A DNA stretch of 64,000 bases from a virus, in the IMG/VR virus record IMGVR_UViG_3300045988_066341. One strand, given 5' to 3'. The notes under the pieces were generated by a model. The model did not search any database. It had not been told where the DNA came from and worked only from the letters and a program-made list of their open reading frames with translations. A program made the translations under genes and the position numbers. Of the stretch, positions 12,060-64,000 are shown piece after piece (position 1 is the first letter of the stretch; the number at the start of each line of letters is the position of its first letter).

Positions 12060-12063
12060 ATTA

Positions 12064-12747: not shown

Positions 12748-12759
12748 AAGGCAAATAGG

Positions 12760-12775
12760 ATTTTACCCCCCCCCA
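12760..12775 (-). promoter_or_regulatory. T-G9-TAAAAT motif upstream of 12064..12747
   Basis: C9 run at 12766-12774 on the plus strand, 18 nt before the ATG. Confidence 0.5.
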
Positions 12776-12806
12776 ATTTAGTTTTAAAATACTGATATTC
12801 ATAATA

Positions 12807-14183: not shown

Positions 14184-15786
14184 TACCTATCTTGTTAAAA
14201 TATTCTACAATAACATTCCTATCCAATCCCATAGAATCACATAAATACTCTCCTTCTGGTTGGCCCCCAAACGATAATACCTTATCCGTATCATGAGCTA
14301 AAACATCTCCATTGCCTACAAAGGTACGCCCATCATCAAATACGATAAGCTTATATGGCTTATATGACCTCGTGTCAATATCAGAAGATCGTATTGACCT
14401 TAACACCGAAGCCTCTGGTGCCATACTAAACCTCCATCCATAATTATTCATAAGCACATAAACCATCTCCATAGGAGTCGATGGAGAGCCATTAGACTGA
14501 CCCTTTATAAAACCAGAGGGAGCCTGTAATACGCCACTAGGTCTTTTATCATCAGGATTGGAAGCTAAATACATACTTAGATACAATCCATAAAACTGAT
14601 TTCTTTTGCCATCGGAAGCAGAGGAAGACATAGTGAGATAATCAAACCCCATCACCCTCTCATATAATGTCGATATAAACGTATCACATCGAACTTGGGT
14701 TGACAAGTTGCGATACATATAAAAGCTATTCATAGACCTCATCTCATATATATAATCCGGGAGATTACTTACATCTATATTACTATAACTGAATGAAGCG
14801 TCGATACGCTCAATGTTTCCCAATCCCTTACCGCTCATATACGGATGCCAACTCACGACAGGTCCATACCATCTATTTATATGATCGAAAATCTTTAAAC
14901 TAGAATTTATCTTATCCACCTCATCCATAGCCGGGCATGTGTTAGGATCAAACGATGATGTGGCATAACCAGGACTTAAATACAATTCTTTTAAATTATT
15001 GAATGATAACCATTCCTTAGGATATAGCCTTACTCTTCCACCAGCTAAATGCAATATCTCCAAATTAGGCCACATGGAAGGGAATTTTCTTATATTGGAA
15101 GCTTCGGTATCACTAAAGTCAATAGAATTGTCCAAAATCAGACCTTTCAATTTAGTTAGTCTATTCCAATCCTCCGGGATGGACTTCAACGTACCCACAC
15201 CAAACTCACTTAATTTTATACGCTCTATATTTACCGATCTCATTATCCTACCCTTTGGTATATATGGTACGATCCCAGGAATACTTATAATCAGATGGGC
15301 AAGGCCAGGCATATCAAGTATAGGGAATCCTGTCATCATTATCCTTGCTGTTTGTACAAATGTAATATCATTCGTAAAAGTCATGGCCACGACCCGCTCT
15401 TTATCCAGCCCATCAGCATAAGCATGATTAGGCACGGGGATATACTCACTCCCGTCATCCTTATAAAACCACCATGGATGGCTATCCGGATTCTTACGAT
15501 AACTTATATCCCTTCTCCTGAACATCAACCTATATTGACCATATATAGATCCACTCCTAGCCTTTACAAAAGGGAATTGTTCTTTACTCCCATCTCCCCA
15601 ATCGACCTCGCACATGCCGGGGGTCTTGGAATAAAACTCTATACTCTCATTATAATTATTACCATCCAATATAGGATCAGGCACATCATCAGTAGTATCA
15701 TTCCTGTTAACTCCCCTAAAAGCGTATTTACCCTTAGTTAAAAAGGTTATAGACCCTTTATTCGTATCCTTACATATCAGCCTCAT
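14176..15786 (-). CDS. LRR-containing putative receptor-binding protein, paralog 2 of 3
   Basis: 536 aa. Same N- and C-terminal blocks with a divergent LRR middle, plus a ~65-aa C-terminal extension shared with paralog 1. Confidence 0.7.
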   Translation of the reverse strand: MRLICKDTNKGSITFLTKGKYAFRGVNRNDTTDDVPDPILDGNNYNESIEFYSKTPGMCEVDWGDGSKEQFPFVKARSGSIYGQYRLMFRRRDISYRKNPDSHPWWFYKDDGSEYIPVPNHAYADGLDKERVVAMTFTNDITFVQTARIMMTGFPILDMPGLAHLIISIPGIVPYIPKGRIMRSVNIERIKLSEFGVGTLKSIPEDWNRLTKLKGLILDNSIDFSDTEASNIRKFPSMWPNLEILHLAGGRVRLYPKEWLSFNNLKELYLSPGYATSSFDPNTCPAMDEVDKINSSLKIFDHINRWYGPVVSWHPYMSGKGLGNIERIDASFSYSNIDVSNLPDYIYEMRSMNSFYMYRNLSTQVRCDTFISTLYERVMGFDYLTMSSSASDGKRNQFYGLYLSMYLASNPDDKRPSGVLQAPSGFIKGQSNGSPSTPMEMVYVLMNNYGWRFSMAPEASVLRSIRSSDIDTRSYKPYKLIVFDDGRTFVGNGDVLAHDTDKVLSFGGQPEGEYLCDSMGLDRNVIVEYFNKIGNG

Positions 15787-32414: not shown

Positions 32415-35400
32415 TTACCTAAAAGCTCCTATAGATACCGATCCAAAGGCAGAGGCATATACCTCATGGTGTTTATAAGCGTCTTCCTTGCGGGCATTAT
32501 TCATCTCCTCGATCTTCGATTTAGGCATGTAATTGTTATCGTCAAAATATCTGGAGAGAACCAACGCATGCCCGAACGCTATTATCCTATCGACGTTCAA
32601 TCCGGGCTTGTACTGTATTATCTCATCCAGTAGGGCTATATCATCAATCAACTCAATACCCTTGACAGTTATATCAAGACCAGTCTGATCATCATAACCA
32701 ATAACGAAATCCTGCCAGCAATAATCCACGACGCACGAGAATAGCAGGTTCTGGTTGCCGGGGGTAGGGTATAGCCCCAGCTTGCTGTTCTGCCGGGAGC
32801 CGGCCTTCACATACTTATTGGCTATTGCCTCACCAGCAAACAGAAAGAAAGACGCTGGCATACCACTTTTACGGTTAAGATACTGCTCATACATCTGGTC
32901 AGCGTTCTCCATAAGACATATAGCACCATATCCTTTCTGAAGCACCTCGCACGTACGGCAAAACTGATCTATGGATGATGGGCGGGATACGTATGAAGCC
33001 ACTATTCTATAGGCATAAGGATCTCGAATACCAACACGTCTCTTGAATACATAAAAAGCACCTAATGAAGGGGTATCAGACTTGGCCTGTTTATAAGGGT
33101 CGCAATTGTGAACAGATATATTCCTTAATAAATAATTATTCGTATCACATTCAAAATTATACACAGGACCGGTATACTTTTCTTTAGTTATAGATGATAT
33201 CCTGACATATATATACTTATTATCATTACTAATAAATATACCTGTGGAAGGACTTTTTCTTGTGCTGGTATCCATACATACTTTAGACAATTTAGATATA
33301 TAATCAGGAGTTAATGTCTCAACCAACTTCATGAAATACACAGTATAGTTATGGCCTATCCTTAAATGATAACATGATCTTTGAGATTTAACCTTATTGC
33401 CATCTATATATTCAGCCCTATTTTTTTTCATTATGGATATACCTCCAACTACTCCAAGAGATAACAATATATCCTGTATACCCTCAAGAAGATCCATACT
33501 GACACTTACGAAATCCATGCCCGAATAATTGCGAAAATCATTATGGATAGATCCATCCGTATCCAGATATCCATGAATTAAACTAACCTTCATGCTAAAC
33601 GGGAGGTATTTAGCAAATTCAGGAATATATTTACCATAACAATATTTACCAAAATTATTAACAAGCCACTCGCTTAGATAAACATGCTTAAAATTTAATT
33701 CCCAATTACCCTTCCTGCATCTCTCCGAAGGCTTAATACCAAAAAGATTATCTATAACCTTGTAATACCTATCCCTCTCTTCTGGATAGTCAAAACAAAT
33801 AGCCATCTGTACACGACACTGCTTATCAATCCATCCATTCCCTAGCCACATCCCGACAAACCACCAAAAATCATCAGAAAGCATATAATCCCTAAATCCC
33901 GGAATATCCATCCTTTCTTCGGCATACATATTTGGGATCCTTGTCCACTGTCCCTCTTTTATATCCTTGACAGGTATGTAATCAAACTTGAATAAATCTT
34001 CCCTAACCCTTCTCCCTACGGTCTTATGATCAGAAACAAAAATAGGATGATCAGAAGTAAATCTATTTATTCTTACGCCATTATACATCTTTATCGAATA
34101 AAGATCCTCTTCGACCATATTTCTGACAAGTCTCTTGCGTATCCTAACATTATCCCCTTCATTATTAACCAAGAAATCATCATAGTCAACATCCTCTACA
34201 TTCTTATATCCATCAGGGGTCAACACCCTTTCTCCGGGAGGCATACATCCTGCGACATAAATAAAATCATCAAACCTATTAGATTGAGGCATCTCAAATA
34301 TCTGGACAGGAGCGTCAATAACACCGCCGCTAAACGGGAAACCAGCCAATTGCTTATTCGATTTAGTAGTACCAAGCTTATTTCCCGATTCAAGAAAAAC
34401 ATCACACAACATGCCGCTATATTGCCCTGACTCAAGAAGATCATTCTTATGCTTGATAGCGTACTCGACCGGAAATAGGTTCTGGGATGAGCTTAAAAAA
34501 CAGTCGTCAATCGTAAATGGATAGAACATGGTATGAGAGGTATAAGCTACCCTATCTTTCGTAGATAGCTTCTTCCGTTCCTCGTTAAGCTTATTGGTAC
34601 TGGCTTCAAAATCCGTGGCATCAATCTTAATCTTATTAAGCTTCTTGTCATCAGGCTTACCAAGATAATCGCCCAATCCTATAGTTCTCTTAACACCGGA
34701 GTTAGCCATCTGACCGGGAACGAACATCGCCCATTTCCGTTCTTTCCATGTTTTCCCTTTCATGGCTCTACGATTTAAAATATCCCAGTCCATAACCAGA
34801 AGATTGTAGGTCTCAGGATCAGAAAACATTTCTTGAGCGTCCTTGGATAATTCTACCTCACCACCAGTACCAGCCAAGATAGGGCTAAGACGCCAGCCGT
34901 AAGGAGTGTCGTAGGAAGGCATAGCGGCAGTGTACGGCTTCTTGATAGGTCCCTTACCAACCTCGTCGAAAATAGCCGTAGCCGGTGTCAAACCAGCCGT
35001 CTTCTGAGTGGAGGTCTTCCTACCCATGTTGATGTTGGCTATAGAGATAATGGCATGGATATCACGTACGCCATTGGACATCCTCTTGCCTAATGTAACG
35101 CCCGAACTCCAGTCGGTCTTGGTCCTGTTGATCCTGAAAAAAGGATGCACATGATCAAGACCATACTCACAATACTCACCTATATTAGATAAATCGCTAT
35201 CGCTGAAACCTACCACGGAATGGCTAAGCCCGATCGTCATGGTAGCGTTCATCTGGAGAAGTGATGACATGATGGTCGTATTATGGGATACGACAAAATT
35301 GGTAGTAAGAAACTGATGAGATTTATTATCTACCTCAATACAAGTAGCCTTATACTTCCCGTAATAATCTATATCGGATATCCTAAGTCTGTTATGGGTC

Positions 35401-36347
35401 TTGGATATATACATATCATCGCCATCCATGACGCAATAATATCCCATAGACCAGAATATTCTTCTTACGAAGGATATAATATACTCACTTTTGTAAACGA
35501 CCTTAAAACGATCGTCACCAGTACTTATGCCGCAAGCTATCTTCATGAATGAGCTTATAAACAACTCCTTCTGTTTTTTGGATGAATAAATAATATCATC
35601 CATCTCCTTATTGCTTAACTCGAAGATCCTGTCGGTAGATCCACAAAGGAAAGAGGCGGTCAGAGACCCAAGGAGCTGGGGCGACATCAGCCACCGCCGC
35701 TCGGGGAAATCCACGGCCTCCCCTATGTCTATAGTCATCTTCTGGAAGTCAGAGTGGATGATACCCATAGTGCTCATGACTTTATAATCACCATGATATT
35801 TAACCTTCCACTGATGTTGACCGCAACATACTATACTGCGCCCGTCCTCAAACGTCACCTTATACATATCAACGAACCCTTGAGGGTATACGCCTACTAT
35901 AGTCGTAAGCTTACCATCATCGCCATATATGATATCCCCGATATCAGCGAACCCTATCTTCTTAGGTCCATAAGGAGTATATATCAGCTCCGAGTCCAGA
36001 AGGGCCTTCCCAAAACGACGGGTACCGAACATCCCCAGCCCTTTCTTCTCCTGACGGGCACGTTGGTACATCTCAGCGAAAAACCATTCATTATCACGTA
36101 ACCGGCTGATAGCAGGAACACGCTCCCCATTTGGAAGATCTTGAAATACGGGAAAGAAATTAACATGCCAATAAAGCCATGGCGGGATGAACGTACCGTT
36201 GATAGTCACCCCGTTCTTGACCTTATAAGCCTCCTCCGTGAAGAACTGCTTAACATCATCATCTTGATCCTCCCAGCCGAACAAATCGTTCCACACTGGA
36301 GGATTCTTCATGTTTACATAAAATTCTGGACTCGTGCTTAAACTCAT
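32415..36347 (-). CDS. terL: Terminase large subunit interrupted by two inteins (687-aa extein)
   Basis: Walker A GTRRFGK|..|T is split by intein 1. Walker B AIFDEVGKG. Nuclease motif IYVAG|..|CDPY is split by intein 2. 1310 aa in total. Confidence 0.85.
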   Translation of the reverse strand: MSLSTSPEFYVNMKNPPVWNDLFGWEDQDDDVKQFFTEEAYKVKNGVTINGTFIPPWLYWHVNFFPVFQDLPNGERVPAISRLRDNEWFFAEMYQRARQEKKGLGMFGTRRFGKALLDSELIYTPYGPKKIGFADIGDIIYGDDGKLTTIVGVYPQGFVDMYKVTFEDGRSIVCCGQHQWKVKYHGDYKVMSTMGIIHSDFQKMTIDIGEAVDFPERRWLMSPQLLGSLTASFLCGSTDRIFELSNKEMDDIIYSSKKQKELFISSFMKIACGISTGDDRFKVVYKSEYIISFVRRIFWSMGYYCVMDGDDMYISKTHNRLRISDIDYYGKYKATCIEVDNKSHQFLTTNFVVSHNTTIMSSLLQMNATMTIGLSHSVVGFSDSDLSNIGEYCEYGLDHVHPFFRINRTKTDWSSGVTLGKRMSNGVRDIHAIISIANINMGRKTSTQKTAGLTPATAIFDEVGKGPIKKPYTAAMPSYDTPYGWRLSPILAGTGGEVELSKDAQEMFSDPETYNLLVMDWDILNRRAMKGKTWKERKWAMFVPGQMANSGVKRTIGLGDYLGKPDDKKLNKIKIDATDFEASTNKLNEERKKLSTKDRVAYTSHTMFYPFTIDDCFLSSSQNLFPVEYAIKHKNDLLESGQYSGMLCDVFLESGNKLGTTKSNKQLAGFPFSGGVIDAPVQIFEMPQSNRFDDFIYVAGCMPPGERVLTPDGYKNVEDVDYDDFLVNNEGDNVRIRKRLVRNMVEEDLYSIKMYNGVRINRFTSDHPIFVSDHKTVGRRVREDLFKFDYIPVKDIKEGQWTRIPNMYAEERMDIPGFRDYMLSDDFWWFVGMWLGNGWIDKQCRVQMAICFDYPEERDRYYKVIDNLFGIKPSERCRKGNWELNFKHVYLSEWLVNNFGKYCYGKYIPEFAKYLPFSMKVSLIHGYLDTDGSIHNDFRNYSGMDFVSVSMDLLEGIQDILLSLGVVGGISIMKKNRAEYIDGNKVKSQRSCYHLRIGHNYTVYFMKLVETLTPDYISKLSKVCMDTSTRKSPSTGIFISNDNKYIYVRISSITKEKYTGPVYNFECDTNNYLLRNISVHNCDPYKQAKSDTPSLGAFYVFKRRVGIRDPYAYRIVASYVSRPSSIDQFCRTCEVLQKGYGAICLMENADQMYEQYLNRKSGMPASFFLFAGEAIANKYVKAGSRQNSKLGLYPTPGNQNLLFSCVVDYCWQDFVIGYDDQTGLDITVKGIELIDDIALLDEIIQYKPGLNVDRIIAFGHALVLSRYFDDNNYMPKSKIEEMNNARKEDAYKHHEVYASAFGSVSIGAFR
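33105..34247 (-). mobile_element. Intein 2 (381 aa) with LAGLIDADG homing-endonuclease domain, at the TerL nuclease motif
   Basis: CMPPGERVLTPDG...ISVHN|C. Block B is TSDH. LAGLIDADG-like motifs FVGMWLGNGWI and LIHGYLDTDGSI. Junction codons were checked. Confidence 0.8.
35280..36005 (-). mobile_element. Intein 1 (242 aa) in the TerL P-loop, class-3-like
   Basis: Starts with Ala (ALLDSELIY), ends VVSHN|T. Block B is GRSIVCCGQHQW (His then Trp at +2). Block F is ATCIEV with Cys where class-1 inteins have Asp. Junction codons were checked on the sequence. Confidence 0.7.
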
Positions 36348-39008: not shown

Positions 39009-39084
39009 CTTAAAAAAAATATCGTTGTCAAGAAATTATGCCATAATCAACATAATATATGCTGATTAGCATGTATTTACGAAC

Positions 39085-39247
39085 ATCCAAAGGAAAAAGG
39101 TGGTGGAAATGGAGGAGGAAAGCCAGATAAGTCCACCGTAAGCCACGGCAACGAGGCCAGTTGAGCACCGGCCATACATGCCTCCGAGCGGCGGTGGACA
39201 GCTCTATCCTGCCTCACGGGACATGACCACACCTTTTCCCTTTGGAT
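39085..39247. repeat. GC-rich element B1
   Basis: ATCCAAAGGAAAAAGGTGGTGG ... CCACACCTTTTCCCTTTGGAT, giving ~20-bp inverted ends, with central CCGGCC at 39168. Confidence 0.75.
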
Positions 39248-39274
39248 GCCTTCCTGCCGTGCTATGGGATATAA

Positions 39275-39378
39275 ATCCAAAGGAAATGGGAAGTCTTGGG
39301 GCGATGGAGCCTGCCGTAGAGGATACGGGCGGCCGGAGCGTGAGCGACCGCACAAGACCTCACCTTTTCTCCTTTGGC
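39275..39378. repeat. GC-rich element B2
   Basis: ATCCAAAGGAAATGGGAAGTCTTG ... CAAGACCTCACCTTTTCTCCTTTGGCT, with central GGCCGG at 39331. Confidence 0.75.
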
Positions 39379-39654
39379 TTCTGCTCCGCCCGATCCCCTT
39401 CCGGGTCCCGGACTCCGGTAACATCATATGGCATTGTTATTATAAGCCTGCGGTGTCCTGCCTGACGGCACTACACCTTGGCAGTAAAAATATTAATTAG
39501 CTATATAGACATTTGACTTCATGATATACCCTACACAAAACATGGAGGATTAGGAAGTAGGATATATTAATATAGTTAATTATAATTAATAAATATACCT
39601 ATTAATGCGCGCGTAACAAGTATGATGTCAAAAATGATCATACAGAAACACAGA

Positions 39655-39670
39655 TATTTACCCCCCCCCA
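39655..39670 (-). promoter_or_regulatory. T-G9-TAAATA motif pointing toward the GC-rich cluster and late operon
   Basis: C9 at 39661-39669. Only a 21-codon ORF follows on the minus strand. Confidence 0.4.
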
Positions 39671-39789
39671 TTTTATTACGACAATTTCGTATAAACAACA
39701 AATGGGCGACCTTCACAGGCTACCCATCCATCCGAATAACTTGTTTCGTATTTACGGAACTCGTATATTCGCAGCAAATAAAATCTTCT

Positions 39790-40839
39790 ATGGGAACAAA
39801 GATAAGATTTTTACATATAATGAAATCAAATTTCGATAAGATTCTTACCGAAAGATATATTCCACGTAATATTCAGACCAAGAAAGATGAGCTAGGATGT
39901 GTAAAACTTCCAGCCGGATCACTTATATGTCCAGTTGATTTTAAGCCTGTTACCAATAAGGAAGGCAAGAAAGTGACAGCCATAAAATATTCATTGAAAC
40001 ATGAGGAGTATCATGGATCGGGAATCCAGATCAGCGATGAATGTAAGATGGCAATGATATATCTTATTATCATAAACGTATCCAAACATGTGTTTCTAAG
40101 AAAAAGGATGCAAGATGGAAACAGAGATCAGATAGAGATTAACACCAATGATTTTATTGATATCCTATCGGATGGATGCGCTTATTTCTGCTACCGACAT
40201 GTATTAAGGGATTCTCATGAGGATATGAACTACCAGCTTATAAGCTTAAAGGCTTGGGCTGAAGGAGAGATTATGATAGCTTTATCGGATATCATAAAAT
40301 ACAAGCATAAGGCTAGTAAGACCCCAAGGATAAAGGATATGTTTGTAAAGAAAGGAGAATCTGTATATACCTGCCTTGATAAAAATCTTGATTCGAATAC
40401 CAGAAGAAGGATGGCTAACAAAAGTCGTAAATTAAATAGAGTCAAGATGTTATCAAAAATAATATTCTCAGCTAGAAACAGAAATATAAATAAGATATAT
40501 AAGGTAACTAAAAAAAGAACTGTCAAATTCAATGTGTCATATCTTATGGATAGATTGAATATAAAGTTATCAAAAGAAGGTATGATGCTAATATCCCAAA
40601 GAACGGTATATCGGATGATAAAAGAAGTTCTTAGTATGTGCTGTAAGACTATATCCGATTTATATGATGAGGTAAAGAAAAACAATGGAATAGTCAATAC
40701 CAAAGACAGGAAAAACGTAACTATCGGACACCTAAGACTATCATACAGAGGAACGATAATGCATATAATTATCGCCGAATATTTTATAAAAGACGTTTTC
40801 TTAGGGGTAAAAGGGGTTGAGATGAGTAAGGCTGGATGA
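39790..40839 (+). CDS. Hypothetical Lys/Asn-rich protein with C-terminal HTH-like segment (start uncertain)
   Basis: The track ORF starts at 39622, but that region contains the C9 tract and looks non-coding, so the first plausible ATG is 39790 or 39820. ..ISQRTVYRMIKE.. is HTH-like. Confidence 0.5.
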   Translation: MGTKIRFLHIMKSNFDKILTERYIPRNIQTKKDELGCVKLPAGSLICPVDFKPVTNKEGKKVTAIKYSLKHEEYHGSGIQISDECKMAMIYLIIINVSKHVFLRKRMQDGNRDQIEINTNDFIDILSDGCAYFCYRHVLRDSHEDMNYQLISLKAWAEGEIMIALSDIIKYKHKASKTPRIKDMFVKKGESVYTCLDKNLDSNTRRRMANKSRKLNRVKMLSKIIFSARNRNINKIYKVTKKRTVKFNVSYLMDRLNIKLSKEGMMLISQRTVYRMIKEVLSMCCKTISDLYDEVKKNNGIVNTKDRKNVTIGHLRLSYRGTIMHIIIAEYFIKDVFLGVKGVEMSKAG

Positions 40840-45744: not shown

Positions 45745-46569
45745 ATGGGAGTTAGAGAAAATTCATCAGGTGGTAATAACCATTACTTTAAAGTAAGTGG
45801 TAGCGGATTATTATATCAGTCATCGAGAGAGCCAAAGGAAGGTTTCGAGGAGCATATAAACGAGAAGACCGGAGCCGTTTCTTATTGGAGGGTATTCTGG
45901 AACGGTATCGAAGGTTATTTGTCTGATATCAATGTGCGAGAAGTGGAGTTCAATGGGATAAAAGCCAAATACGTGTCCATAAAGATAAGTGATGAGGATG
46001 GTAATTATTTCATAAACGTTCCTTTGATGACTCAAAAAGGAGGTATTAATAATTACGTGAAGTCACTGGTAAGGTACTTGCCTAATATTGACCTAAAACG
46101 TAAGGTGGTAATAAATCCTGCTCATGCTAAGAAAGGGGATCAATATGCTCCCGGTAATTTTTTCATTTCATACGCTAGGGAAACTCCAGATGGGAAGGAC
46201 GAGCTTATCCAGCAATATTATAAGAACGGACAGAACGGATGGCCTGATAGGGTAGAGAGCACGGATATAATGGGTAACAAGAAATTCGATTATACGGCTC
46301 AAGACACTTTCGCTTTTCAAGTATTTAAACAATATCTTGAAAAGTTTAAGGCTGAAAACGAAAAATCGGAACAGGATAGAAGCCAAAGCATGGGCGCTAC
46401 GCCAACCGCACAGACGCCCCCACCGTCATATGCAACGCAGGCTCCATCGCAAACGCCTCCTCCATCATACCAGCAGGCTCCGCAGCAAGCGCAAGCCCCT
46501 TTGTTTGGAGGTCAACAACAACCTCCTCAATATCCTCCTTTTGGAGACGACAGTGATCTTCCATTTTAA
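45745..46569 (+). CDS. ssb: Single-stranded DNA-binding protein (atypical N-domain)
   Basis: Pro/Gln-rich linker and C-terminal acidic tip DDSDLPF, matching the bacterial SSB tail DDDIPF. The N-terminal domain was not recognised. Confidence 0.55.
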   Translation: MGVRENSSGGNNHYFKVSGSGLLYQSSREPKEGFEEHINEKTGAVSYWRVFWNGIEGYLSDINVREVEFNGIKAKYVSIKISDEDGNYFINVPLMTQKGGINNYVKSLVRYLPNIDLKRKVVINPAHAKKGDQYAPGNFFISYARETPDGKDELIQQYYKNGQNGWPDRVESTDIMGNKKFDYTAQDTFAFQVFKQYLEKFKAENEKSEQDRSQSMGATPTAQTPPPSYATQAPSQTPPPSYQQAPQQAQAPLFGGQQQPPQYPPFGDDSDLPF

Positions 46570-46595
46570 TTAACTAATTAAAAATCAGAAAGTTA

Positions 46596-46853
46596 ATGGA
46601 GAGTAATTTCAATATATCTACTAAAGTGAATCGTGTCTCGATGCCTACCCAAAATAAGGTAGATACGGTTATGAAGAACCTAGGGCATCGATCTTGTATA
46701 GCGTATTCCGAGGAAAAGGATATGTATTATAAGGATGGAGAATGGGTAGCGTCAGATCTTGACGCTACTATCTTACCTCTTAGGGAGATGTTCGAGAAGA
46801 CATCTGATTTGAAGTTAGGATTGAAGATCGTTTATTTAATAATCAAATTATAA
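46596..46853 (+). CDS. Hypothetical small protein
   Basis: 85-aa ORF. Confidence 0.45.
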   Translation: MESNFNISTKVNRVSMPTQNKVDTVMKNLGHRSCIAYSEEKDMYYKDGEWVASDLDATILPLREMFEKTSDLKLGLKIVYLIIKL

Positions 46854-47401
46854 TGGCCAGTATTGAGGATATTAAAAAGCTTCTGGAAAGCAAGTCGTTT
46901 ACATCAGCCAGAGACCTTGATGAGCTTGAGGAGAAGCCGGATGATAAACAAAACGAGGTTAGATTGAATTGCGACCCTATGGTAGGGATGATGGAGGAAG
47001 AGGGGAAGATCTTCCTTAACTCCGTAAGATTCTCGAAAGCATGGAACTCGTTGGGTAAGGATATTCCTATCAAGCAGGGTAATGCTTTCCCATTAGGGCA
47101 GGGTGATGTCCTTGATATAGACACAGGGGTATGGGCATCGTTCCCGGATAATACCATAGGGGTGTTGATGATGCTGCCGTCGTTTACCGGAGATACGGGA
47201 CTTACTTTGGTAGGATCACCGTTCGTATCGTCTAATAACGGGAATATCATGATCAGGGTCACTAATGTCCGTAAGGATATGGCTATAGTCGAGAAAGACA
47301 AACATATAGCTGAGTTAATTATAGTCGGCAAGATAAAAGCCGATATTTTTAGAACTTATAAAAGTAATGAGGATGTTCGGATTGAAGATAGTAAAGAGTA
47401 G
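46853..47401 (+). CDS. Degenerate dUTPase-fold-like protein
   Basis: 182 aa. ..DTGVWASFPDNTIGVLMMLPSFTGDTGLTLVGSPFVSSNNGNIMIRVTN.. resembles the dUTPase beta-barrel but lacks the RSS and GxxDxxYRGE motifs. Confidence 0.35.
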   Translation: MASIEDIKKLLESKSFTSARDLDELEEKPDDKQNEVRLNCDPMVGMMEEEGKIFLNSVRFSKAWNSLGKDIPIKQGNAFPLGQGDVLDIDTGVWASFPDNTIGVLMMLPSFTGDTGLTLVGSPFVSSNNGNIMIRVTNVRKDMAIVEKDKHIAELIIVGKIKADIFRTYKSNEDVRIEDSKE

Positions 47402-47975
47402 CTATATAAATACTCTAAAACAGGATCTTGATGAAGCTATTAGCTATTCAAGTAGATTAAAAAGGGATTATGAGGATTCCCGCAAGAAGATAACGGAATT
47501 AGAAGAGAAAGTAGGGTATCTTGAAACTCTTTCCGATTCCCTTAATATGGATATAGAACAAAAGGATTCTATTATAATTAAGATGGGTAATGAGCTTAGT
47601 AAATCAAGAGAGATATATAATGAGTCGGTAAAAGAGAAAGAAACTCTTAAACGGGCTTATATGGATATCGAGAAGAAACATAAACTATCATCTAAATTAC
47701 TCGATGAGGCTAGAAGAAGATATAAGGAACTTGAGGACCAGAATAAAATCATGTCAGATCGTATCAAGTATCTGGAGGCAGAGATTTTAGACATCGATGT
47801 TCCTAATGAGGTTGTTGTTGATGAGGATAAGATGGATCCTAACTCAGGTCATATTGATATACCTGAAAATAACGCCCCTGAGGTCGCTGATGCCGGTATT
47901 GACGTAAATGTCGAGAATAAGGCGGAGGATAAGAAGAAATCTAAGAAACGTAAAAAATCTAAGAAAAGTGAATAA
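47367..47975 (+). CDS. Coiled-coil protein with poly-Lys C-terminus
   Basis: 202 aa with heptad-like charged sequence, ending KKKSKKRKKSKKSE. Confidence 0.5.
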   Translation: MRMFGLKIVKSSYINTLKQDLDEAISYSSRLKRDYEDSRKKITELEEKVGYLETLSDSLNMDIEQKDSIIIKMGNELSKSREIYNESVKEKETLKRAYMDIEKKHKLSSKLLDEARRRYKELEDQNKIMSDRIKYLEAEILDIDVPNEVVVDEDKMDPNSGHIDIPENNAPEVADAGIDVNVENKAEDKKKSKKRKKSKKSE

Positions 47976-49115: not shown

Positions 49116-49187
49116 GCCCTAATAGTTCAATGGATAGAACACGTCGGTCCTAACGATGAAATTTCGGTTCGATTCCGGATTGGGGTA
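49116..49187 (+). tRNA. tRNA-Arg (CCT)
   Basis: Acceptor GCCCTAA/TTGGGGT (two G-U pairs). D arm GTTC-AATGGATA-GAAC. Anticodon stem CGTCG/CGATG with loop GTCCTAA. T arm TTCGG-TTCGATT-CCGGA. 72 nt. Confidence 0.7.
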
Positions 49188-49315
49188 CATGGTGTTTTCT
49201 TAAACATATTCCCGTAGGTCGGTAATTAACGATAACCGGTAGACAGCCTACGGGAATTAATAAAATCTTACGTGCTTAAGATCGCTTTCAGTTCTATTTT
49301 TCGTGTGTAATCTAT

Positions 49316-52102: not shown

Positions 52103-52118
52103 GATTATAGTTTTGTCC

Positions 52119-52126
52119 CAAAGATA
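52119..52126 (-). promoter_or_regulatory. TATCTTTG promoter motif
   Basis: 16 nt upstream of ATG 52102. Confidence 0.5.
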
Positions 52127-52155
52127 TGAAATTTTGAGGATAAAACCAGAAGAAA

Positions 52156-52228
52156 GCCAAAAAGAACGGGAGGCGGTGGGAGGACGGGGGATGCTCGGAA
52201 GGATGGAAGCCAGCCCGTTCCCTTGGAT
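52156..52228. repeat. GC-rich element C
   Basis: GCCAAAAAGAACGGG ... CCCGTTCCCTTGGAT. The 3' half is ~75% identical to element E. Confidence 0.7.
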
Positions 52229-52310
52229 TCAGCGACATGATTCGAGAATAAATCATATATTTGTATGTACAAAATGCATAATAATATGATATTAAATAAA
52301 ATTAACTCAA

Positions 52311-52326
52311 TGGGGGGGGGTATTTT
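52311..52326 (+). promoter_or_regulatory. T-G9-TATTTT motif upstream of 52352..53026
   Basis: G9 at 52312-52320, 31 nt before the ATG. Confidence 0.5.
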
Positions 52327-52351
52327 CCGTCCTCCATAAAAACAATAGATT

Positions 52352-53026
52352 ATGTTAAGAAGAAGAATGTTAAGTCAAATGCCATTACCGCCGTCCGGTA
52401 ACGTGAATGACGCTTATTTTTACGTGGAAGCTCCATGGATAAAAGATCTATCAAAATATAATATGAATGTGGATGGATCTATGTATATGGATATTGATAA
52501 ATATAATGGTAAATATGTATTTTCCATGGGAAGAGTAGGAACCTACAATTCCTATATCAAATTTGATAATGACTCGAATATATTACCATGCCCTCAACCA
52601 GATAACGAAATATCCATAGAAGCGTTGCTCTATTTAAATACACAACAGGAAGGAAGATATTATCTCTTCGCTCCATATGGAACCCAATCTACTACACAAA
52701 GCTATTTATGTATCGGTGTTAATGTCTCATCATATGGGACTTCCCTTTTTTATACCCAAGGACGATCTGTGGCTATACAACCATATCAGTGGATACATGT
52801 AATGGCGTCGTGGAGAAATGGGTATTTAAGGGAATATATTGGAGGAGTACTGAATTATGAGGATGCGACTAATGTGATGTATACACGAAACTATCAAACA
52901 TATTATTTTAATATAGGAGGATATCCATCAGCATATAACATGGGGCTCCCGGGAATGTTTAGGTATGTAAGGATCTGGAATTATGCTAAGAACTTTGACT
53001 TGGATAAATTCGTGCCGGATACTTGA
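52352..53026 (+). CDS. LamG/concanavalin-like lectin-fold protein with MLRRRM N-terminus
   Basis: 224 aa. ..YQWIHVMASWRNGYLREYIGG...x..FRYVRIWNYA fits the LamG jelly-roll signature. Confidence 0.6.
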   Translation: MLRRRMLSQMPLPPSGNVNDAYFYVEAPWIKDLSKYNMNVDGSMYMDIDKYNGKYVFSMGRVGTYNSYIKFDNDSNILPCPQPDNEISIEALLYLNTQQEGRYYLFAPYGTQSTTQSYLCIGVNVSSYGTSLFYTQGRSVAIQPYQWIHVMASWRNGYLREYIGGVLNYEDATNVMYTRNYQTYYFNIGGYPSAYNMGLPGMFRYVRIWNYAKNFDLDKFVPDT

Positions 53027-53088
53027 TCATACGATATTAAGGTGGTGGTCGTGCCACTACCTATCTATTATTCCATAATAAAGATATA

Positions 53089-53164
53089 TACCAAGGGAAG
53101 TAGCCGGCGGAAGCCCCGATGGGTAGGCCCGGAGGGATGAAGGGAGGCCTACCTCCCTTTGGTA
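53089..53164. repeat. GC-rich element D (between convergent genes)
   Basis: TACCAAGGGAAGTAGCC ... GGCCTACCTCCCTTTGGTA. Confidence 0.75.
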
Positions 53165-53185
53165 CTACATCCTCCTCACAATATA

Positions 53186-53749
53186 TTATGATGGTACTAC
53201 AATTACTATATTTACATTATAGGTGTTATTGTAAATGCCAGTTCCAACGGCAACAGATTGGCATCCCTCACAGGCATTGGCTGTTATACAATGATTACTT
53301 GTTATAAGATGACCTTGCCAAGTTATACGATTGTTACTTGTAATCTGATTATAAAATTCAGACATGTAAGTGAAATTGATAATCTCCTCAGGATCGGTTA
53401 TCTCCGTTATAGGAGTAAATTTAGTTATCCTATTCCCGTATAACTCCGTATCAGCTAAATCACAATGCACACCAGAATTATATAGATACGTGAGAGTCCC
53501 TTTTGAAACACCTCCAGTCGTGCCTAATAAAATGTTGTACTCATATTGTTGATCCTTTGAAACTATCTGTCCACCTATTCTTATAACTTCTATCTTCTTA
53601 TTGCGATATATATCAAGATAAGATCCGTTAAAATCAGATTGATATGTATCTCCATCAATATATATATCTACAGGATTAGGACACATGCTCTTGTCTATAT
53701 TAATACGGTAGTGGATCTTACCGGAAGAAGAAGTCCTGCGCCTAAACAT
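53186..53749 (-). CDS. Hypothetical protein with MFRRR N-terminus
   Basis: 187 aa. T-G10-TATTTT motif 28 nt upstream, with AAGGAGG just before the ATG. Confidence 0.55.
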   Translation of the reverse strand: MFRRRTSSSGKIHYRINIDKSMCPNPVDIYIDGDTYQSDFNGSYLDIYRNKKIEVIRIGGQIVSKDQQYEYNILLGTTGGVSKGTLTYLYNSGVHCDLADTELYGNRITKFTPITEITDPEEIINFTYMSEFYNQITSNNRITWQGHLITSNHCITANACEGCQSVAVGTGIYNNTYNVNIVIVVPS

Positions 53750-53771
53750 ACCCCCTCCTTATCTGAGGGTT

Positions 53772-53788
53772 AAAATACCCCCCCCCCA
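53772..53788 (-). promoter_or_regulatory. T-G10-TATTTT motif upstream of 53186..53749
   Basis: C10 at 53778-53787 on the plus strand. Confidence 0.5.
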
Positions 53789-53876
53789 CGAAGTTATATG
53801 TAATATATTGATACATGATTAAATAATTTAAGTTACGTACAAATATAATAAATTATATTAGATGGGGGAGGGAAGA

Positions 53877-53952
53877 TACCAAGGAAGGGTGGCTGGCGTC
53901 ATACCCGCCGGGAAGGCTATAAGGGATGGGAGCCAGCCCCGTTCTATTGGGT
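53877..53952. repeat. GC-rich element E
   Basis: TACCAAGGAAGGGTGGCTGG ... CCAGCCCCGTTCTATTGGGT. Confidence 0.7.
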
Positions 53953-53967
53953 CAGTAGGGTGTATGA

Positions 53968-54723
53968 TCACTCGATGTCACGTACAAATCGAACAGAAGA
54001 GGTTAGGCGCTTGTATCGGGTGAATGTGCGCCCATTGTTGAATAGTACGATCCATCCGGAGTTGGAGCTATGCTCTGAACTAGACCAATAATATCTGGTA
54101 TCTAACGGCTGTCCACCAATAGCCAATAACGCGTTATTGACGCTAATTAAGTACATATATATCAATGAAAGCTGACCACATGATGGGATATACCAATCAT
54201 CATATCCTTTAGCGTCAGCACTAGCTAAGAACGTATTAAGTACATGACCGGCTGTCGCATAGGAAGTATAAGAACCGCCACCGGTAGTCACCCCTTTTAA
54301 TACATTGGAATTCGCTTTCCCATCCCAATCAGATAAAGCCCCATTCGTCCAGGAGCTAACATCATCCGGAAGATATGGAGTACCTTTGTATGAATCTTGC
54401 TCAGGTTTCAGGAAACCAAAATCATTGCTCCCGTCTACTTTGTCATAATTTGTAATGCCGGTCTGATCCGTACCATATTCACCCCAATAAAAAGAATAAG
54501 TCTTGTTAGAAGAATCGGGCAAACCGGACGTGGCTGTTTTGTAGCTTTGATTAGAATCTTCATTCTTCTCAATCATGATCTTATGATCATCATGTACAAT
54601 AGCTACGGATATACATTGATAATCCGCCTTTGACAAAGGTATTAATCTACCATCCTGTTTAACGGCATAAACGCCATTATCAACAGGGGATTTATAACTT
54701 GAATAAAATCTCCTCCTTATCAT
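53968..54723 (-). CDS. DUF1566/Lcl-C-terminal-like lectin-type protein with MIRRRF N-terminus
   Basis: 251 aa. ..DDWYIPSCGQL..x..YYWSSSE.S...W.V.F..G......K.....VRFVR matches the DUF1566 pattern (from memory). Confidence 0.6.
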   Translation of the reverse strand: MIRRRFYSSYKSPVDNGVYAVKQDGRLIPLSKADYQCISVAIVHDDHKIMIEKNEDSNQSYKTATSGLPDSSNKTYSFYWGEYGTDQTGITNYDKVDGSNDFGFLKPEQDSYKGTPYLPDDVSSWTNGALSDWDGKANSNVLKGVTTGGGSYTSYATAGHVLNTFLASADAKGYDDWYIPSCGQLSLIYMYLISVNNALLAIGGQPLDTRYYWSSSEHSSNSGWIVLFNNGRTFTRYKRLTSSVRFVRDIE

Positions 54724-54747
54724 AAGAATAAATTTTTACGAAGGATA

Positions 54748-54763
54748 TAAATACCCCCCCCCA
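54748..54763 (-). promoter_or_regulatory. T-G9-TATTTA motif upstream of 53968..54723
   Basis: C9 at 54754-54762, 30 nt before the ATG. Confidence 0.5.
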
Positions 54764-54885
54764 TCATGTATTTAACTTCTTTATTCATAATATATTATGT
54801 TTTAATTATATCGCAAATATAACAAATTAAATGAGATGGAAGGTGATATGGTTGTGAGGAAGTATGAGGGATATTCGGGGAGGAT

Positions 54886-55020
54886 GATATGCGGGACATT
54901 ATTGGAGAGATGGGGTGGGGTATGATGGGAGGGGGATATGCGGGACGGACCACCTCCCCGAAATCGGCCCGGCCGGGCTGCCGTTTTTGGACCAGCCCCC
55001 CCCCAATCCACAAAGGACGG
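54886..55020. repeat. Degenerate/composite GC-rich element F with internal C9 run
   Basis: GATATGCGGGAC occurs twice. CCCGGCCGGG palindrome at 54968-54977. CCGTTTTTGG end. C9 at 54996-55004. ATCCACAAAGGACGGGAAAC. Confidence 0.45.
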
Positions 55021-55282
55021 GAAACAAGAACGGTAAACGATCTGCGAGCCGAAAAAAGAATGATTATTTTGTGTTTAACTTGTTGATTATCAATCATATA
55101 AATCAATATTTTAATATATGTTTACATTTGATTAGATTTATTACATATAATCGTCGAATTTTTATTGCAAAATATTTGTTGGACAATAAAACATGTAGTA
55201 TATTTGCTCCTGTAAGATAACAGCATTAACAAACAAGGCGTACCAGGTGCCATTATAAGTCCTAAAGGTATAGGCAAAGTAT

Positions 55283-55823: not shown

Positions 55824-55850
55824 GCCCCTATATCATTTATGTATAGGGGC
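55824..55850 (+). terminator. Hairpin after 55283..55813
   Basis: GCCCCTATA-tcatttatg-TATAGGGGC with no clear T-run. Confidence 0.45.
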
Positions 55851-56372
55851 GTTATGGTAGCACACCTATGCGTTCCCGTCGCGCTACTGATTTAGACTAA
55901 ATAGGTACGATATTTGATATTTTGATATAAACATATTGCTGGTTGTTAGGGTCTCGAGAGCCAGCAATAGATAGGCCGCCGCTTAGTAATGTGGTTTAGG
56001 TACTATCCTAGTCCAGGGTAGTACTATTATCTTTAGGTTTATATCAATCCGGTAAGTACGCTAGGTTAACCTAGTAGACCGTGTAAAAACACGGGGTATG
56101 TTGGTGTATATACGCATTTATAGGGCGTATGTCCATGCGTTGCTAGAGTAACATGTATGGAGTGCATTACGGGGCTATAACCGTGCCAATATATCAAAGC
56201 AATAGTATCTAAGGTTGCTTAAATACTTGGATACTATATGTAGTATCAAAATAGCAGCCCTTACAAGGGTATTTTGTGCGGTTAAATTGACGGACAAAGT
56301 GCGCCTTGTCGATACGTATCACGGACAACGTATGTATGTATTTGGCCGGCTTCGTTGTCGGCAAAGGGACTA
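55851..56372. other. ORF-free, hairpin-dense region (candidate structured RNA or replication-origin component)
   Basis: No credible ORF on either strand. At least 10 local stems (ATTGCTGG/CCAGCAAT, GTACTATCC/GGGTAGTAC, CTAGGTTAACCTAG, CCGTG/CACGG, ATACGC/GCGTAT, AAGCAA/TTGCTT, GATACTA/TAGTATC, GATACGTATC). Confidence 0.35.
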
Positions 56373-56466
56373 ATCCAAAGGGAATAGGGGGGGGCGTGCG
56401 GGCGTTCGGTTGGTTGTATTGATAAGGCCGGCCGTATTGCCCCCGGTCTCCCGTTTCTTATTGGTG
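56373..56466. repeat. GC-rich element G (contains a G8 run)
   Basis: ATCCAAAGGGAATAGGGGGGGG ... central GGCCGGCC (56426-56433) ... CCCCCGGTCTCCCGTTTCTTATTGGTG. Confidence 0.7.
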
Positions 56467-56485
56467 CCATTAAAAAGAATAGATT

Positions 56486-56692
56486 ATGTACAAAAAAAAG
56501 TTTGATAATTTGAATAAGAAATTATCCATTCAAAAAGAAAAGGCTTTAAAGTCCATCAAAAAAGCCCAAATGGAATTTTACATTGAACTTACCAAAGAAC
56601 TATACAATTCTAATAAATTAGATTGTAGCAGGGAGTCGGACAAGTGCAGGCGGAAACGTGTTAGTTACATGGCAAACAAATTGCGGCAATAG
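56486..56692 (+). CDS. Hypothetical small helical protein
   Basis: 68 aa, followed by a strong terminator. Confidence 0.5.
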   Translation: MYKKKFDNLNKKLSIQKEKALKSIKKAQMEFYIELTKELYNSNKLDCSRESDKCRRKRVSYMANKLRQ

Positions 56693-57420: not shown

Positions 57421-57515
57421 AAGATAAATCAAGGTAAATCAAAGGAGATCAAAGGGAATCAAAGAAAACCAAGAGAAACCAAGGGAGATCAAGGTGAACC
57501 GAGGGAAAACGAGGA
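57421..57515 (+). repeat. Array of ~10 degenerate decamers with exact 10-bp phasing (consensus AARGRRAWYC)
   Basis: aagataaatc|aaggtaaatc|aaaggagatc|aaagggaatc|aaagaaaacc|aagagaaacc|aagggagatc|aaggtgaacc|gagggaaaac|gaggaatcca. Confidence 0.85.
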
Positions 57516-58013: not shown

Positions 58014-58297
58014 AATCGGTTGATATGAGATTCATTTATTTAATGGAGCTTAGAGGAAAGGATATATACGTAGGCGACAAGAAGTGCAAAAGAGTAAAAA
58101 TATATGTAGGCAGACCGTTGAGGGATACGCCTAAAACCTATAAACAAATAGGCGGATTTGTAGCAAAAGAACTATCCAACGCTTATAACAGCGGTTGTGT
58201 TTCCATCTATGAAGCAAAGGATAAAACGCTCAGATATTCGGTTTATCGAGACGGTTGTTTTTATCCTTATTACGGGAAATTAGAGGTGGCAGAATAA
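58001..58297 (+). CDS. Hypothetical small protein
   Basis: Start moved to ATG 58001 (the track start is a TTG at 57968). Confidence 0.45.
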   Translation: MLDLKSVDMRFIYLMELRGKDIYVGDKKCKRVKIYVGRPLRDTPKTYKQIGGFVAKELSNAYNSGCVSIYEAKDKTLRYSVYRDGCFYPYYGKLEVAE

Positions 58298-58372
58298 TAC
58301 CAAGGGGAACGCGGGCGGCTGCGGGGAGGCTGGACAGGCCTTGTCGCCAGCGCCGTCCTTTTTCCCTTGGCA
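58298..58372. repeat. GC-rich element I
   Basis: TACCAAGGGGAACGCGGGCGGC ... GCGCCGTCCTTTTTCCCTTGGCA. It fills the spacer between the stop at 58297 and the ATG at 58388. Confidence 0.8.
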
Positions 58373-58387
58373 ACAATAGAAATAAAT

Positions 58388-60270: not shown

Positions 60271-60353
60271 ACCAAACCTTGGCGGGGCGGAAGGATATAT
60301 CATGATCGTACGTGTACGGATATGATCCGGGGTCGGTTCCCGGCGCCTTGGCA
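60271..60353. repeat. GC-rich element J (variant ends)
   Basis: ACCAAACCTTGGCGGGGCGG ... CCGGGGTCGGTTCCCGGCGCCTTGGCAC. The ends are a direct CCTTGGC rather than clean inverted repeats. Confidence 0.5.
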
Positions 60354-60376
60354 CAACTTAATTAAATATAGATAAT

Positions 60377-63519: not shown

Positions 63520-64000
63520 ATGAAATCTTACAAAGGGTTTGACAAAAATTTAAAATGCCGGGATTTTCAATATGAAATAGGCAAGGAATATGAGATGGAT
63601 GGAGAGATCAAGCTGTGTAGCAGAGGGTTTCACGCTTGCGAAAGCCCATTTGAAGTTTTTGATCATTATTCCATGATAGGATCTAGGTTTTGCGAAGTAG
63701 AGCAAGACGGGAATATATCCAAGGAGGATAGAGGGACAAAGATTTGCTCCTCGAAAATAAAAATAAAAGCAGAGTTAAAATTGGCTGACATGATCTATCT
63801 TGGGGTCGAATGGCTAAAAGAGATCACATCACCTGAAAAAATAAAAACGAGCATAAAGGATAATTCATCCGGCAACTATGCCCAGATAGGATCATCCGGC
63901 AACGGTGCCCAGATAGGATCATCCGGCAACGGTGCCCAGATAGGATCATCCGGCAACTATGCCCAGATAGGATCATCCGGCAACGGTGCCCAGATAGGAT
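63520..64000 (+). CDS. Protein with conserved N-terminal domain and nonapeptide repeats, 5' part only (runs off the right edge; not in the ORF track)
   Basis: ATG at 63520, open to the window end. MKSYKGFDKNLKCRDFQYEIGKEYEMDGEIKLCSRGFHACESPFEVFDHY.. resembles a widespread phage/bacterial N-domain (from memory). It is followed by GSSGN(Y/G)AQI repeats. Confidence 0.7.
   Translation, partial: MKSYKGFDKNLKCRDFQYEIGKEYEMDGEIKLCSRGFHACESPFEVFDHYSMIGSRFCEVEQDGNISKEDRGTKICSSKIKIKAELKLADMIYLGVEWLKEITSPEKIKTSIKDNSSGNYAQIGSSGNGAQIGSSGNGAQIGSSGNYAQIGSSGNGAQIG
63865..63999 (+). repeat. 27-nt tandem repeat, at least 5 copies, coding
   Basis: tcatccggcaac(ta/gg)tgcccagatagga repeated head to tail up to the window edge. 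Confidence 0.9.

Follow-up and report, generated by a model that had tools for sequence, protein, structure and literature searches.

Why should a phage carry long homopolymeric G tracts just ahead of a few accessory genes? The question is raised by a 64,000-nucleotide (nt) stretch of DNA from the virus record IMGVR_UViG_3300045988_066341 (hereafter the window), in which four genes whose products start with M-x-R-R-R are each preceded by an uninterrupted run of nine or ten G residues. Comparison of the window with its relatives revealed that each of these runs is embedded in a short open reading frame (ORF) upstream of the gene, and that the length of the run, which differs among relatives, determines where this leader ORF ends with respect to the main start codon. 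We propose that the poly-G tracts are contingency loci that would act via translational coupling on tail-fibre-like accessory genes, a reading to which we assign a probability of about 50%.

G tracts upstream of the accessory genes

The initial annotation of the window had described five sites of the form T-G(9-10)-TA-W4, together with a C9 run at 54996-55004 and a G8 run at 56387-56394, and had placed the first four sites 31, 28, 30 and 18 nt before exactly the genes whose products start M-x-R-R-R. Inspection of the sequence bore out these points, down to the individual coordinates and distances. The five sites are as follows.

52311-52326, + strand: site 1, TG9TATTTT
53772-53788, - strand: site 2, TG10TATTTT
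54748-54763, - strand: site 3, TG9TATTTA
12760-12775, - strand: site 4, TG9TAAAAT
39655-39670, - strand: site 5, TG9TAAATA

Only four genes in the window start with M-x-R-R-R (at 52352, 53749, 54723 and 12747), each with a G9 or G10 run 18-31 nt upstream; an additional long MFRRR match, at 15525, begins at a Met within the ORF 14176-15786 and is not a gene start. The claimed excess of G runs over chance is likewise real, with 14 G8 words against 2.1 expected, a count reached by none of 100 dinucleotide shuffles, and GGGGGGGGTA ranks second among the recurrent 10-mers of the window. At sites 1-4 the runs are uninterrupted in nearly all relatives and always lie on the sense strand. The T-G(n)-TAWWWW motif as a whole stands only in part: it is present at the window sites and in the leaders of relatives, but its flanks vary, the base 5' of the run being T, A or C among relatives, and the sequence 3' of it being TATTT(T/A/C), TAAAAT, AGTAAAAT, AATAAT, TAATCC or TAAACA.

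Leader ORFs and their frame outcomes

An ATG whose frame is open into the run lies 22-47 nt upstream of every run, and the run is read as Gly codons. At sites 1-3 the leader ORFs comprise 17-24 codons, and their ATGs follow a -7 promoter box, TATATTTG, by 22-25 nt, the distance at which start codons normally follow promoters in this phage. Cassette 4 lacks a separate promoter, and its leader ORF begins just past the stop of the gene 12807-14183. The elements of the four cassettes are listed below.

52256-52263, + strand: cassette 1, -7 promoter box TATATTTG, 22 nt before the leader-ORF ATG at 52286
52286-52339, + strand: cassette 1, leader ORF (encoding MILNKINSMGGGIFRPP, then a stop); its G9 form ends 15 nt short of the main ATG
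52312-52320, + strand: G9 tract of site 1, forming Gly codons of the leader ORF; G7-G11 at orthologous sites
52327-52335, + strand: cassette 1, C/U-rich segment CCGTCCTCC, a predicted pairing partner of the G tract
53840-53847, - strand: cassette 2, -7 promoter box TATATTTG, 23 nt before the leader-ORF ATG
53742-53816, - strand: cassette 2, leader ORF (encoding MYQYITYNFVGGGYFNPQIRRGYV, then a stop); in the G10 form the stop TAG and the main start overlap (ATGTTTAG)
53778-53787, - strand: G10 tract of site 2; relatives with the same flanks mostly have G9
53751-53769, - strand: cassette 2, CCCTC ... AAGGAGGGGG, a segment resembling an anti-Shine-Dalgarno (anti-SD) sequence and an SD-like sequence before the main ATG
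54814-54821, - strand: cassette 3, -7 promoter box TATATTTG, 25 nt before the leader-ORF ATG
54720-54788, - strand: cassette 3, leader ORF (encoding MNKEVKYMMGGGIYILRKNLFL, then a stop); in the G9 form the stop TGA and the main ATG overlap (ATGA)
54754-54762, - strand: G9 tract of site 3; G8-G10 in relatives
12677-12802, - strand: cassette 4, leader ORF (product beginning MNISILKLNWGGVKSY); with G9 it reads 68 nt into the main ORF, out of frame
12766-12774, - strand: G9 tract of site 4, confirmed in the sequence

Cassette 1 has more in-frame ATGs at 52265, 52274 and 52310. Beyond the run, the three frames come to different ends. The frame of the main ORF meets a stop 6-23 nt before the main ATG (state a), a second frame stays open to a stop that overlaps the main ATG as ATGA, ATGTTAA, ATGTTTAG or ATGCTTAG (state b), and the third usually enters the gene out of frame (state c). 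The outcome depends on run length modulo 3. All three outcomes are seen within the window, the overlapping stop being the actual state at sites 2 and 3; among relatives of cassette 4, the ATGA overlap arises with G10, and with G8 the leader ORF ends 18 nt short of the main ATG. A leader ORF was found in 224 of 230 dereplicated leaders, distributed over states a, b and c as 108, 72 and 44.

Both features exceed what shuffled sequences provide. Of 10 leader classes, all 10 have a frame that starts at an ATG and stays open into the run (shuffle chance 0.14-0.27 per class), and the frame with the overlapping stop occurs in 12 of 12 (chance 0.19-0.69 per class); the joint chance of the former over six conservatively independent groups is ~6e-5 and the product for the latter over nine classes ~6e-4, values that are optimistic because the leader classes are partly related by descent.

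The idea that reading through the tract adds an N-terminal extension or fusion to the main protein was considered and rejected. The main frame has a stop between run and ATG in every cassette type, and the tract therefore lies outside the reading frame of the protein that it would regulate. The sequence CCAT(T)AAAAA..AATAGATT-ATG, which makes up the 3' portion of the cassette leader, also occurs at 56465-56488, 5' of the unrelated small gene 56486-56692, and thus may be a general initiation region of this phage.

Position of the tracts relative to promoters

Two promoter roles had been suggested for the motif in the initial annotation, namely a phage-specific promoter class and a tract that changes promoter spacing, and neither withstood analysis. 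The TATATTTG boxes at sites 1-3 lie 48-52 nt upstream of the run and ~90 nt before the main ATG, so that the run falls in an unusually long mRNA leader and not in a promoter spacer. The motif also differs from the promoters of ordinary genes in the window, many of which have TAnnTTTG, the Bacteroidota sigma-A -7 element, 16-26 nt 5' of the ATG. Because this element precedes so many window genes, the host is probably a Bacteroidales species.

We regard it as very improbable that T-G9-TAWWWW is itself a phage-specific promoter or that the tract is a spacer setting the -35/-10 geometry. Such a role would fit the A/T-rich, -10-like hexamer 3' of most runs, and has general precedent in that crAss-like phages encode their own RNA polymerase and that promoter-spacer tracts occur in Neisseria and Bordetella. 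Against it, the -10-like box is unconserved, varying among TATTTT, TATTTA, TATTTC, TAAAAT, AATAAT, TAATCC and TAAACA, and these hexamers do not fit TAnnTTTG. Depending on the cassette type, 0 to ~58 nt separate the hexamer from the ATG, with TAAAAT abutting the ATG in the MFRRRW type, and the canonical -7 box upstream leaves the run outside any spacer. Furthermore, a sigma-70 promoter scan of the region placed no promoter on the motif and none spanning the tract, and showed no enrichment (24 found versus 20.8 expected). A search for intrinsic terminators flagged only the SD hairpin of site 2 and no G run. Given that the tract lies downstream of the TATATTTG box and inside a short upstream ORF, the likely lever is translational rather than promoter geometry.

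Recurrence in other lineages

A search of related genomes for the motif, as the initial annotation had advised, found G-run leaders of this build in the window's lineage and in two more distant ones. One of these is represented by csAssE-Sib, a 151-kb human-gut phage whose portal protein is 48% identical to that of the window. The 150 kb examined of this phage contain a single run of G>=7, a G11. The gene 18 nt downstream of it encodes WOZ57291.1, a protein with the start MRRRFL that belongs to Gly_rich_2, as does the product of the site-4 gene; within the csAssE-Sib clade the flanks are the same and the run is G7-G11. On a putative tail-fibre gene, L284 (csAssE-Sib) also has an annotated diversity-generating retroelement at 45751-47816, with a reverse transcriptase, a variable region (VR), a template repeat (TR) and an initiation of mutagenic homology (IMH) element. 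The tail genes of that lineage therefore carry two distinct devices for diversification. The window showed no reverse transcriptase.

The third lineage (L361-L366) carries two adjacent cassettes of the same build, with runs of G8-G10. Its leader ORFs have AGGAGG or GGAG upstream, and the leader ATG overlaps the stop of the upstream gene (ATGA); with G9, an ATGA is also formed by the leader stop and the main ATG. Predicted hairpins enclose the main start or its SD-like sequence, with z-scores of -2.55 and -2.78, 2 and 3 of 200 shuffles folding as well. As modelled, this arrangement is the textbook layout for coupling by unmasking.

Run-length variation among relatives

Run lengths were read from assembled consensus contigs, many of them from one IMG/VR dataset, and sites 4 and 5 were covered by flank-anchored scans blind to run length. 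Site 4 in 48 relatives has G7 twice, G8 ten times, G9 24 times and G10 ten times, besides a few interrupted forms. Site 5 in 30 relatives has a modal length of G8 (16 cases), with G9 in 8, G7 in 1 and an interrupted run, GGGAGGGG, in 5. Over all cassettes, lengths range from 6 to 15 and are mostly G7-G11, with single cases of 19 and 24. Among genome pairs that are identical over the 200-nt flank, run length differs in 51 of 104 at site 4 and in 55 of 99 at site 5; pairwise flank substitution rates were discarded because interrupted runs shift the register, and only these pair counts were used. In contrast, a control A8 run (39012-39019) is constant in 19 of 19 relatives and a control A7 run (40510-40516) in 10 of 10. 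Of the earlier proposal of hypermutable slipped-strand tracts acting through promoter spacing, the first half is thus retained, run length being polymorphic and the pure sense-strand tract kept across deep divergence, and the second is abandoned.

An alternative in which errors of sequencing or assembly at homopolymers produced the length differences, and the runs are functionless or neutral relics, appears barely credible to us. The length data all come from short-read assemblies and G homopolymers are error-prone, but the A8 and A7 runs are invariant in the same contigs and half of the flank-identical pairs differ, far above consensus error. Moreover, pure runs occupy the same place, strand and gene class across lineages with 48%-identical portal proteins, and the sole long G run of csAssE-Sib falls at this very site.

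RNA structure of the leaders

Most window-type leaders have the run, then TATTT, then CCTCC, and most cassette types are predicted to form run/CCUCC hairpins, with energies of -12 to -17 kcal/mol (for cassette 1, -16.8 kcal/mol with a z-score of -1.9). The CCCUC segment of site 2 is predicted to pair alternatively with the run or with the SD-like AAGGAGGGGG (hairpin CCCTCAGATAAGGAGGG). Three types have no nearby C/U-rich partner 5' of the ATG, namely csAssE-Sib, site 4 and the type in which AGTAAAAT abuts the ATG, and RNA structure is therefore likely a modifier and not the common denominator.

These predictions bear on a different explanation, in which the G run is a leader-RNA structure or binding site, recognized in cis by a C/U-rich segment or in trans by a C-rich small RNA or a protein, the leader ORF is incidental, and run length merely tunes pairing as in RepG/tlpB. 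We consider this unlikely. It draws on the hairpins predicted in most cassette types, on the C/U-rich segments of site 2 and the third lineage that can alternatively pair with an SD-like sequence, on the invariable presence of the run on the sense strand, and on a conserved GC-rich element beside cassette 3, which has a complementary C7-C9 run on the + strand. Nevertheless, the three partnerless types and the weak z-scores of the window hairpins speak against it, and it leaves the start codon and open frame before every run unexplained. The GC-rich element is, by its sequence, a possible RepG-type partner acting in trans; its RNAalifold consensus energies are weak (-11.5 and -11.4 kcal/mol on the two strands), with no consensus fold on either strand, and it had no match in Rfam at gathering or relaxed thresholds.

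Accessory gene products and possible cassette exchange

The four genes behind the tracts are the following.

52352-53026, + strand: accessory gene 1 (MLRRRM..., 224 amino acids (aa)), Laminin_G_3 / ConA-like lectin fold, E = 1.2e-7, above the Pfam cut-off
53186-53749, - strand: accessory gene 2 (MFRRRTSS..., 187 aa), no family match
53968-54723, - strand: accessory gene 3 (MIRRRFYSS..., 251 aa), C-terminal Lcl_C (C-type-lectin-like) domain; phrog_4245
12064-12747, - strand: accessory gene 4 (MMRRRMLPKRK..., 227 aa), Gly_rich_2, E = 2.1e-7

The description of the products as lectin-like is reasonable for two of the four, the Laminin_G_3 protein and the Lcl_C protein, the latter just below its cut-off (E = 3e-8, 34.4 bits versus 34.9); the other two are the Gly_rich_2 product and the product of gene 2, which lacks a family match. 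In both the window and L365 the Gly_rich_2 gene is the final gene of the tail module, directly before the lysis genes, and the L365 homologue matches minor-tail-protein PHROGs. A database homologue (P0005) has the Gly_rich_2 domain at the end of a longer protein, the N-terminal part of which appears coiled-coil-like by eye. None of 86 Gly_rich_2 relatives has an informative name, and a search for solved-structure relatives of the four proteins gave nothing useful beyond a weak HbP1 match for the Lcl_C domain. From these domains and positions, it is a reasonable inference that the products are tail-fibre or adhesin modules.

The four products have only M-x-R-R-R in common. Its arginines are encoded by AGA, AGG, CGC, CGT or CGG, and this variation implies conservation at the protein level. 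AGG is thus among the codons used at these starts, and the phage encodes a tRNA-Arg(CCU) at 49116-49188, along with tRNA-Met and tRNA-Cys. Gene callers begin gene 4 at the second-frame Met (MLPKRK) and thereby miss M-M-R-R-R. The Gly_rich_2 gene is followed by an M15-type endolysin-like ORF (11610-12200, - strand; phrog_894) that overlaps it in another frame, and the database relatives P0002 and P0058 are 373-aa fusions or frameshifted versions of the two. A terminator-like hairpin at 53040-53062 follows accessory gene 1.

The shared first codons raise the possibility that the tract is a junction for cassette exchange, with run and leader as short recombination homology and regulation secondary. 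As the main role of the tract this seems improbable to us. The upstream module beginning TATATTTGCGATATAATT is joined to MIRRRF in the window and to MFRRRT in L006 and L007, the MFRRRT gene is found behind two different upstream modules, and otherwise unrelated domains share the M-x-R-R-R start, all as exchange would predict. However, breakpoints also occur within the leader, for example after CCTCCATAAAAA, and are not focused on the run, and a recombination signal needs neither a sense-strand bias nor a pure run nor an enclosing ORF. Exchange is compatible with translational coupling and no substitute for it: the conserved leader probably serves as homology for cassette exchange as well, which would explain the first codons common to unrelated domains.

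Other runs and genomic setting

Site 5 and the runs in two GC-rich elements are cases separate from the leader tracts.

39661-39669, - strand: G9 tract of site 5, in a divergent intergenic region; it begins a small ORF (39576-39671), with no M-x-R-R-R gene
54996-55004, - strand: G9 run (C9 on the + strand), in the conserved GC-rich intergenic element upstream of cassette 3; G7-G9 in relatives
56387-56394, + strand: G8 run, in a second GC-rich element, upstream of the gene 56486-56692; G7-G8 in relatives

An interpretation of site 5 as a C9 (PPP) inside the 405-aa ORF 39622-40839 was judged unlikely, as the first 55 codons of that ORF do not look like coding sequence, the ATG at 39790 has a promoter-like TATATTCG 18 nt upstream, and the C8 of most relatives would break the frame. 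The GC-rich element (54830-55060; also 55840-56470) includes a terminator-like hairpin at 54965-54980 on the + strand, and some of its variants look compensatory by eye. It is adjoined by a short repeat of variable number (GTCCCGCATAT, or units resembling CGCATATCC), present twice in the window and in much greater number in L045, L079 and L092. A further GC-rich stretch of ~400 nt (39077-39470) is located in the divergent intergenic region that separates the structural and replication modules, and its overlapping multi-frame ORFs look non-coding. Motifs of this stretch such as CCAAAGG and TCCCTTGG recur in other GC-rich intergenic spots at 52110-52230, 56340-56460, 58260-58380 and 60290-60370. 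Tandem repeats were found at 57426-57494 (10 bp, ~7 copies) and at 63865-64000, where 5 copies of the 27-bp TCATCCGGCAACGGTGCCCAGATAGGA (94% match) continue past the window end.

The minus strand of the window carries the structural module, with terminase, portal, capsid and tail genes, and the plus strand the replication module, including a Dda-like helicase and a UvsX-like recombinase. Besides its relation to csAssE-Sib, the window portal is 30% identical to those of Cellulophaga phages phi17:2 and phi4:1, phi14:2 being more weakly related; related IMG/VR contigs extend to ~150-160 kb. The terminase large subunit ORF (32415-36347, - strand, 1310 aa) matches terminases only at residues ~97-236 and 1071-1295, and its middle part matches unrelated PHROGs, one of ribonucleotide-reductase type, which suggests that it carries an intein or another large insert.

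A model of frame-switched coupling

The proposed coupling builds on the observed anatomy of the leaders, their length polymorphism, their conservation across lineages and their three frame outcomes. Each tract would be a hypermutable simple-sequence repeat on the sense strand of the accessory-gene mRNA leader, embedded in the leader ORF. At sites 1-3, the host-type promoter TATATTTG would drive a transcript with the leader ORF as its first cistron; at site 4, the leader ORF would come after the upstream tail gene. Polymerase slippage would add or remove one G and thus shift the frame. In state a, the leader ORF would terminate 6-23 nt short of the main ATG. In state b, its stop would overlap the main ATG (ATGA, ATGTTAA or ATGTTTAG) in the classic termination-reinitiation geometry, and in state c, out-of-frame reading across the main start should occlude initiation. 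A C/U-rich segment 3' of the run (CCUCC, CCCUC or CCUCUU) could pair with the run or, where one is present, with the SD-like sequence, which would add a structural layer. As a result, each accessory adhesin would be made at different levels in different genomes of the phage population. Which state is ON we infer, as we do switching within a lineage and the role of the products as virion adhesins.

In keeping with a simple-sequence repeat, G9 or G10 is uninterrupted at five sites and varies in length far more than the control runs. In keeping with coupling, the leader start stands in an initiation-competent context and, in one of the three frames, the leader stop overlaps or abuts the main start. 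Masking of the main start is predicted in the third lineage and is not evident in the A/U-rich leaders of the window.

Several points, besides the kinship of the leader classes, weigh against this model. The z-scores of the window hairpins are weak (-0.6 to -1.9), and in the window leaders the A/U-rich region around the main start shows no clear sequestration, so initiation may do without coupling. The leader is also dispensable, as homologous MRRR Gly_rich_2 genes occur without a G run: L323 has a precise deletion of run and leader ahead of its MRRR gene, another clade has TATATTTG 8 nt from the ATG of the homologue, and a homologue in a Parabacteroides metagenome-assembled genome has no upstream G run and a start that looks directly coupled to the preceding gene. 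Judged by these homologues, the leader would be an add-on regulatory module, not needed by the gene. G9 is the commonest length at sites 1-4 whatever the cassette type, but it corresponds to state a, b or c according to the type, so the length distribution looks set by mutation; selection for one leader-ORF state was considered and rejected, all three states being common. Lengths taken from consensus contigs leave room for homopolymer assembly error, and both translation of the leader ORF and an effect of run length on the main gene are predictions from sequence.

More tentatively, and with our judgement leaning somewhat against it, we suggest that the poly-G leader ORF is a portable, heritable frame-switch coupler between a promoter or tail gene and an adhesin-like gene, present in at least three gut phage lineages and, within the window's lineage, on several unrelated binding domains, in which slippage by one base would set coupling on, partly on or off. 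If so, crAss-like phages would gain combinatorial and reversible variation in virion surface or host range with their protein sequences unchanged. These phages and their relatives are among the most abundant human gut viruses and persist against Bacteroidales hosts whose surfaces vary by phase; a contingency system of the phage's own, acting on accessory binding proteins, would directly mirror such variation in the host. Gene callers skip the leader ORFs, and assemblers may collapse real tract heterogeneity here.

Comparison with known systems

Translational coupling and control by leader ORFs are classical. Our literature searches on crAss-like and Bacteroides phages returned no description of a poly-G, homopolymer or contingency tract in such an arrangement, and the literature searched described no homopolymer that sets the frame of a leader ORF as a phase-variation mechanism. 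A frame-setting homopolymer would add a translational route beside the in-ORF and promoter-spacer routes.

The closest phage precedents lie within coding sequences. As far as the account in PMC12633550 goes, receptor-binding genes of Campylobacter phages (Fletchervirus) carry poly-G contingency tracts (Sorensen et al. 2021 in PMC12633550); contingency loci of T2 and T4 also lie within coding sequences (PMC12633550). The present tracts resemble those of the Campylobacter phages, as there described, in being hypermutable G tracts of 7-11 nt at host-recognition or accessory genes with heterogeneity in the population. They differ in position: the Campylobacter phage tracts lie in the main coding sequence and frameshift the protein, whereas here the tract is in a separate leader ORF, with in-frame stops between.

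Bacterial precedents place the repeat upstream of the gene. Moraxella catarrhalis uspA1 has a G8-G12 tract upstream of an adhesin ORF, in which one-base changes grade expression (PMC7302503). The G(n) tract 5' of an adhesin-type gene is common to both systems, but in uspA1, a bacterial gene, variation is reported at the mRNA level and no leader ORF is described (PMC7302503). The Helicobacter pylori tlpB leader likewise contains a variable homopolymeric G-repeat, the length of which sets post-transcriptional output via the small RNA RepG (PMC8295292). A C/U-rich small RNA is needed there in trans, whereas the C/U-rich partner here is in cis and the run is inside an ORF. Phase variation by 5' untranslated region (UTR) repeats in Haemophilus influenzae is, in the account of PMC12721329, RNase III-dependent. 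That system shares with ours an intergenic repeat acting via 5'-UTR structure and mRNA processing rather than promoter spacing; it differs, as described in that source, in the type of repeat, in its RNase III-dependent mechanism and in having no leader ORF.

Leader-ORF control is exemplified by erm-type leader peptides (PMC5499644) and by unmasking through upstream ORFs (PMC8092293), which respond to antibiotic and Mg2+. As in such coupled systems, translation of a short upstream ORF would here terminate at the main start or across it, and would, in the third lineage, unfold a hairpin that buries this start. Unlike in those cases, the input would be a heritable and reversible homopolymer frameshift rather than the physiology of the cell.

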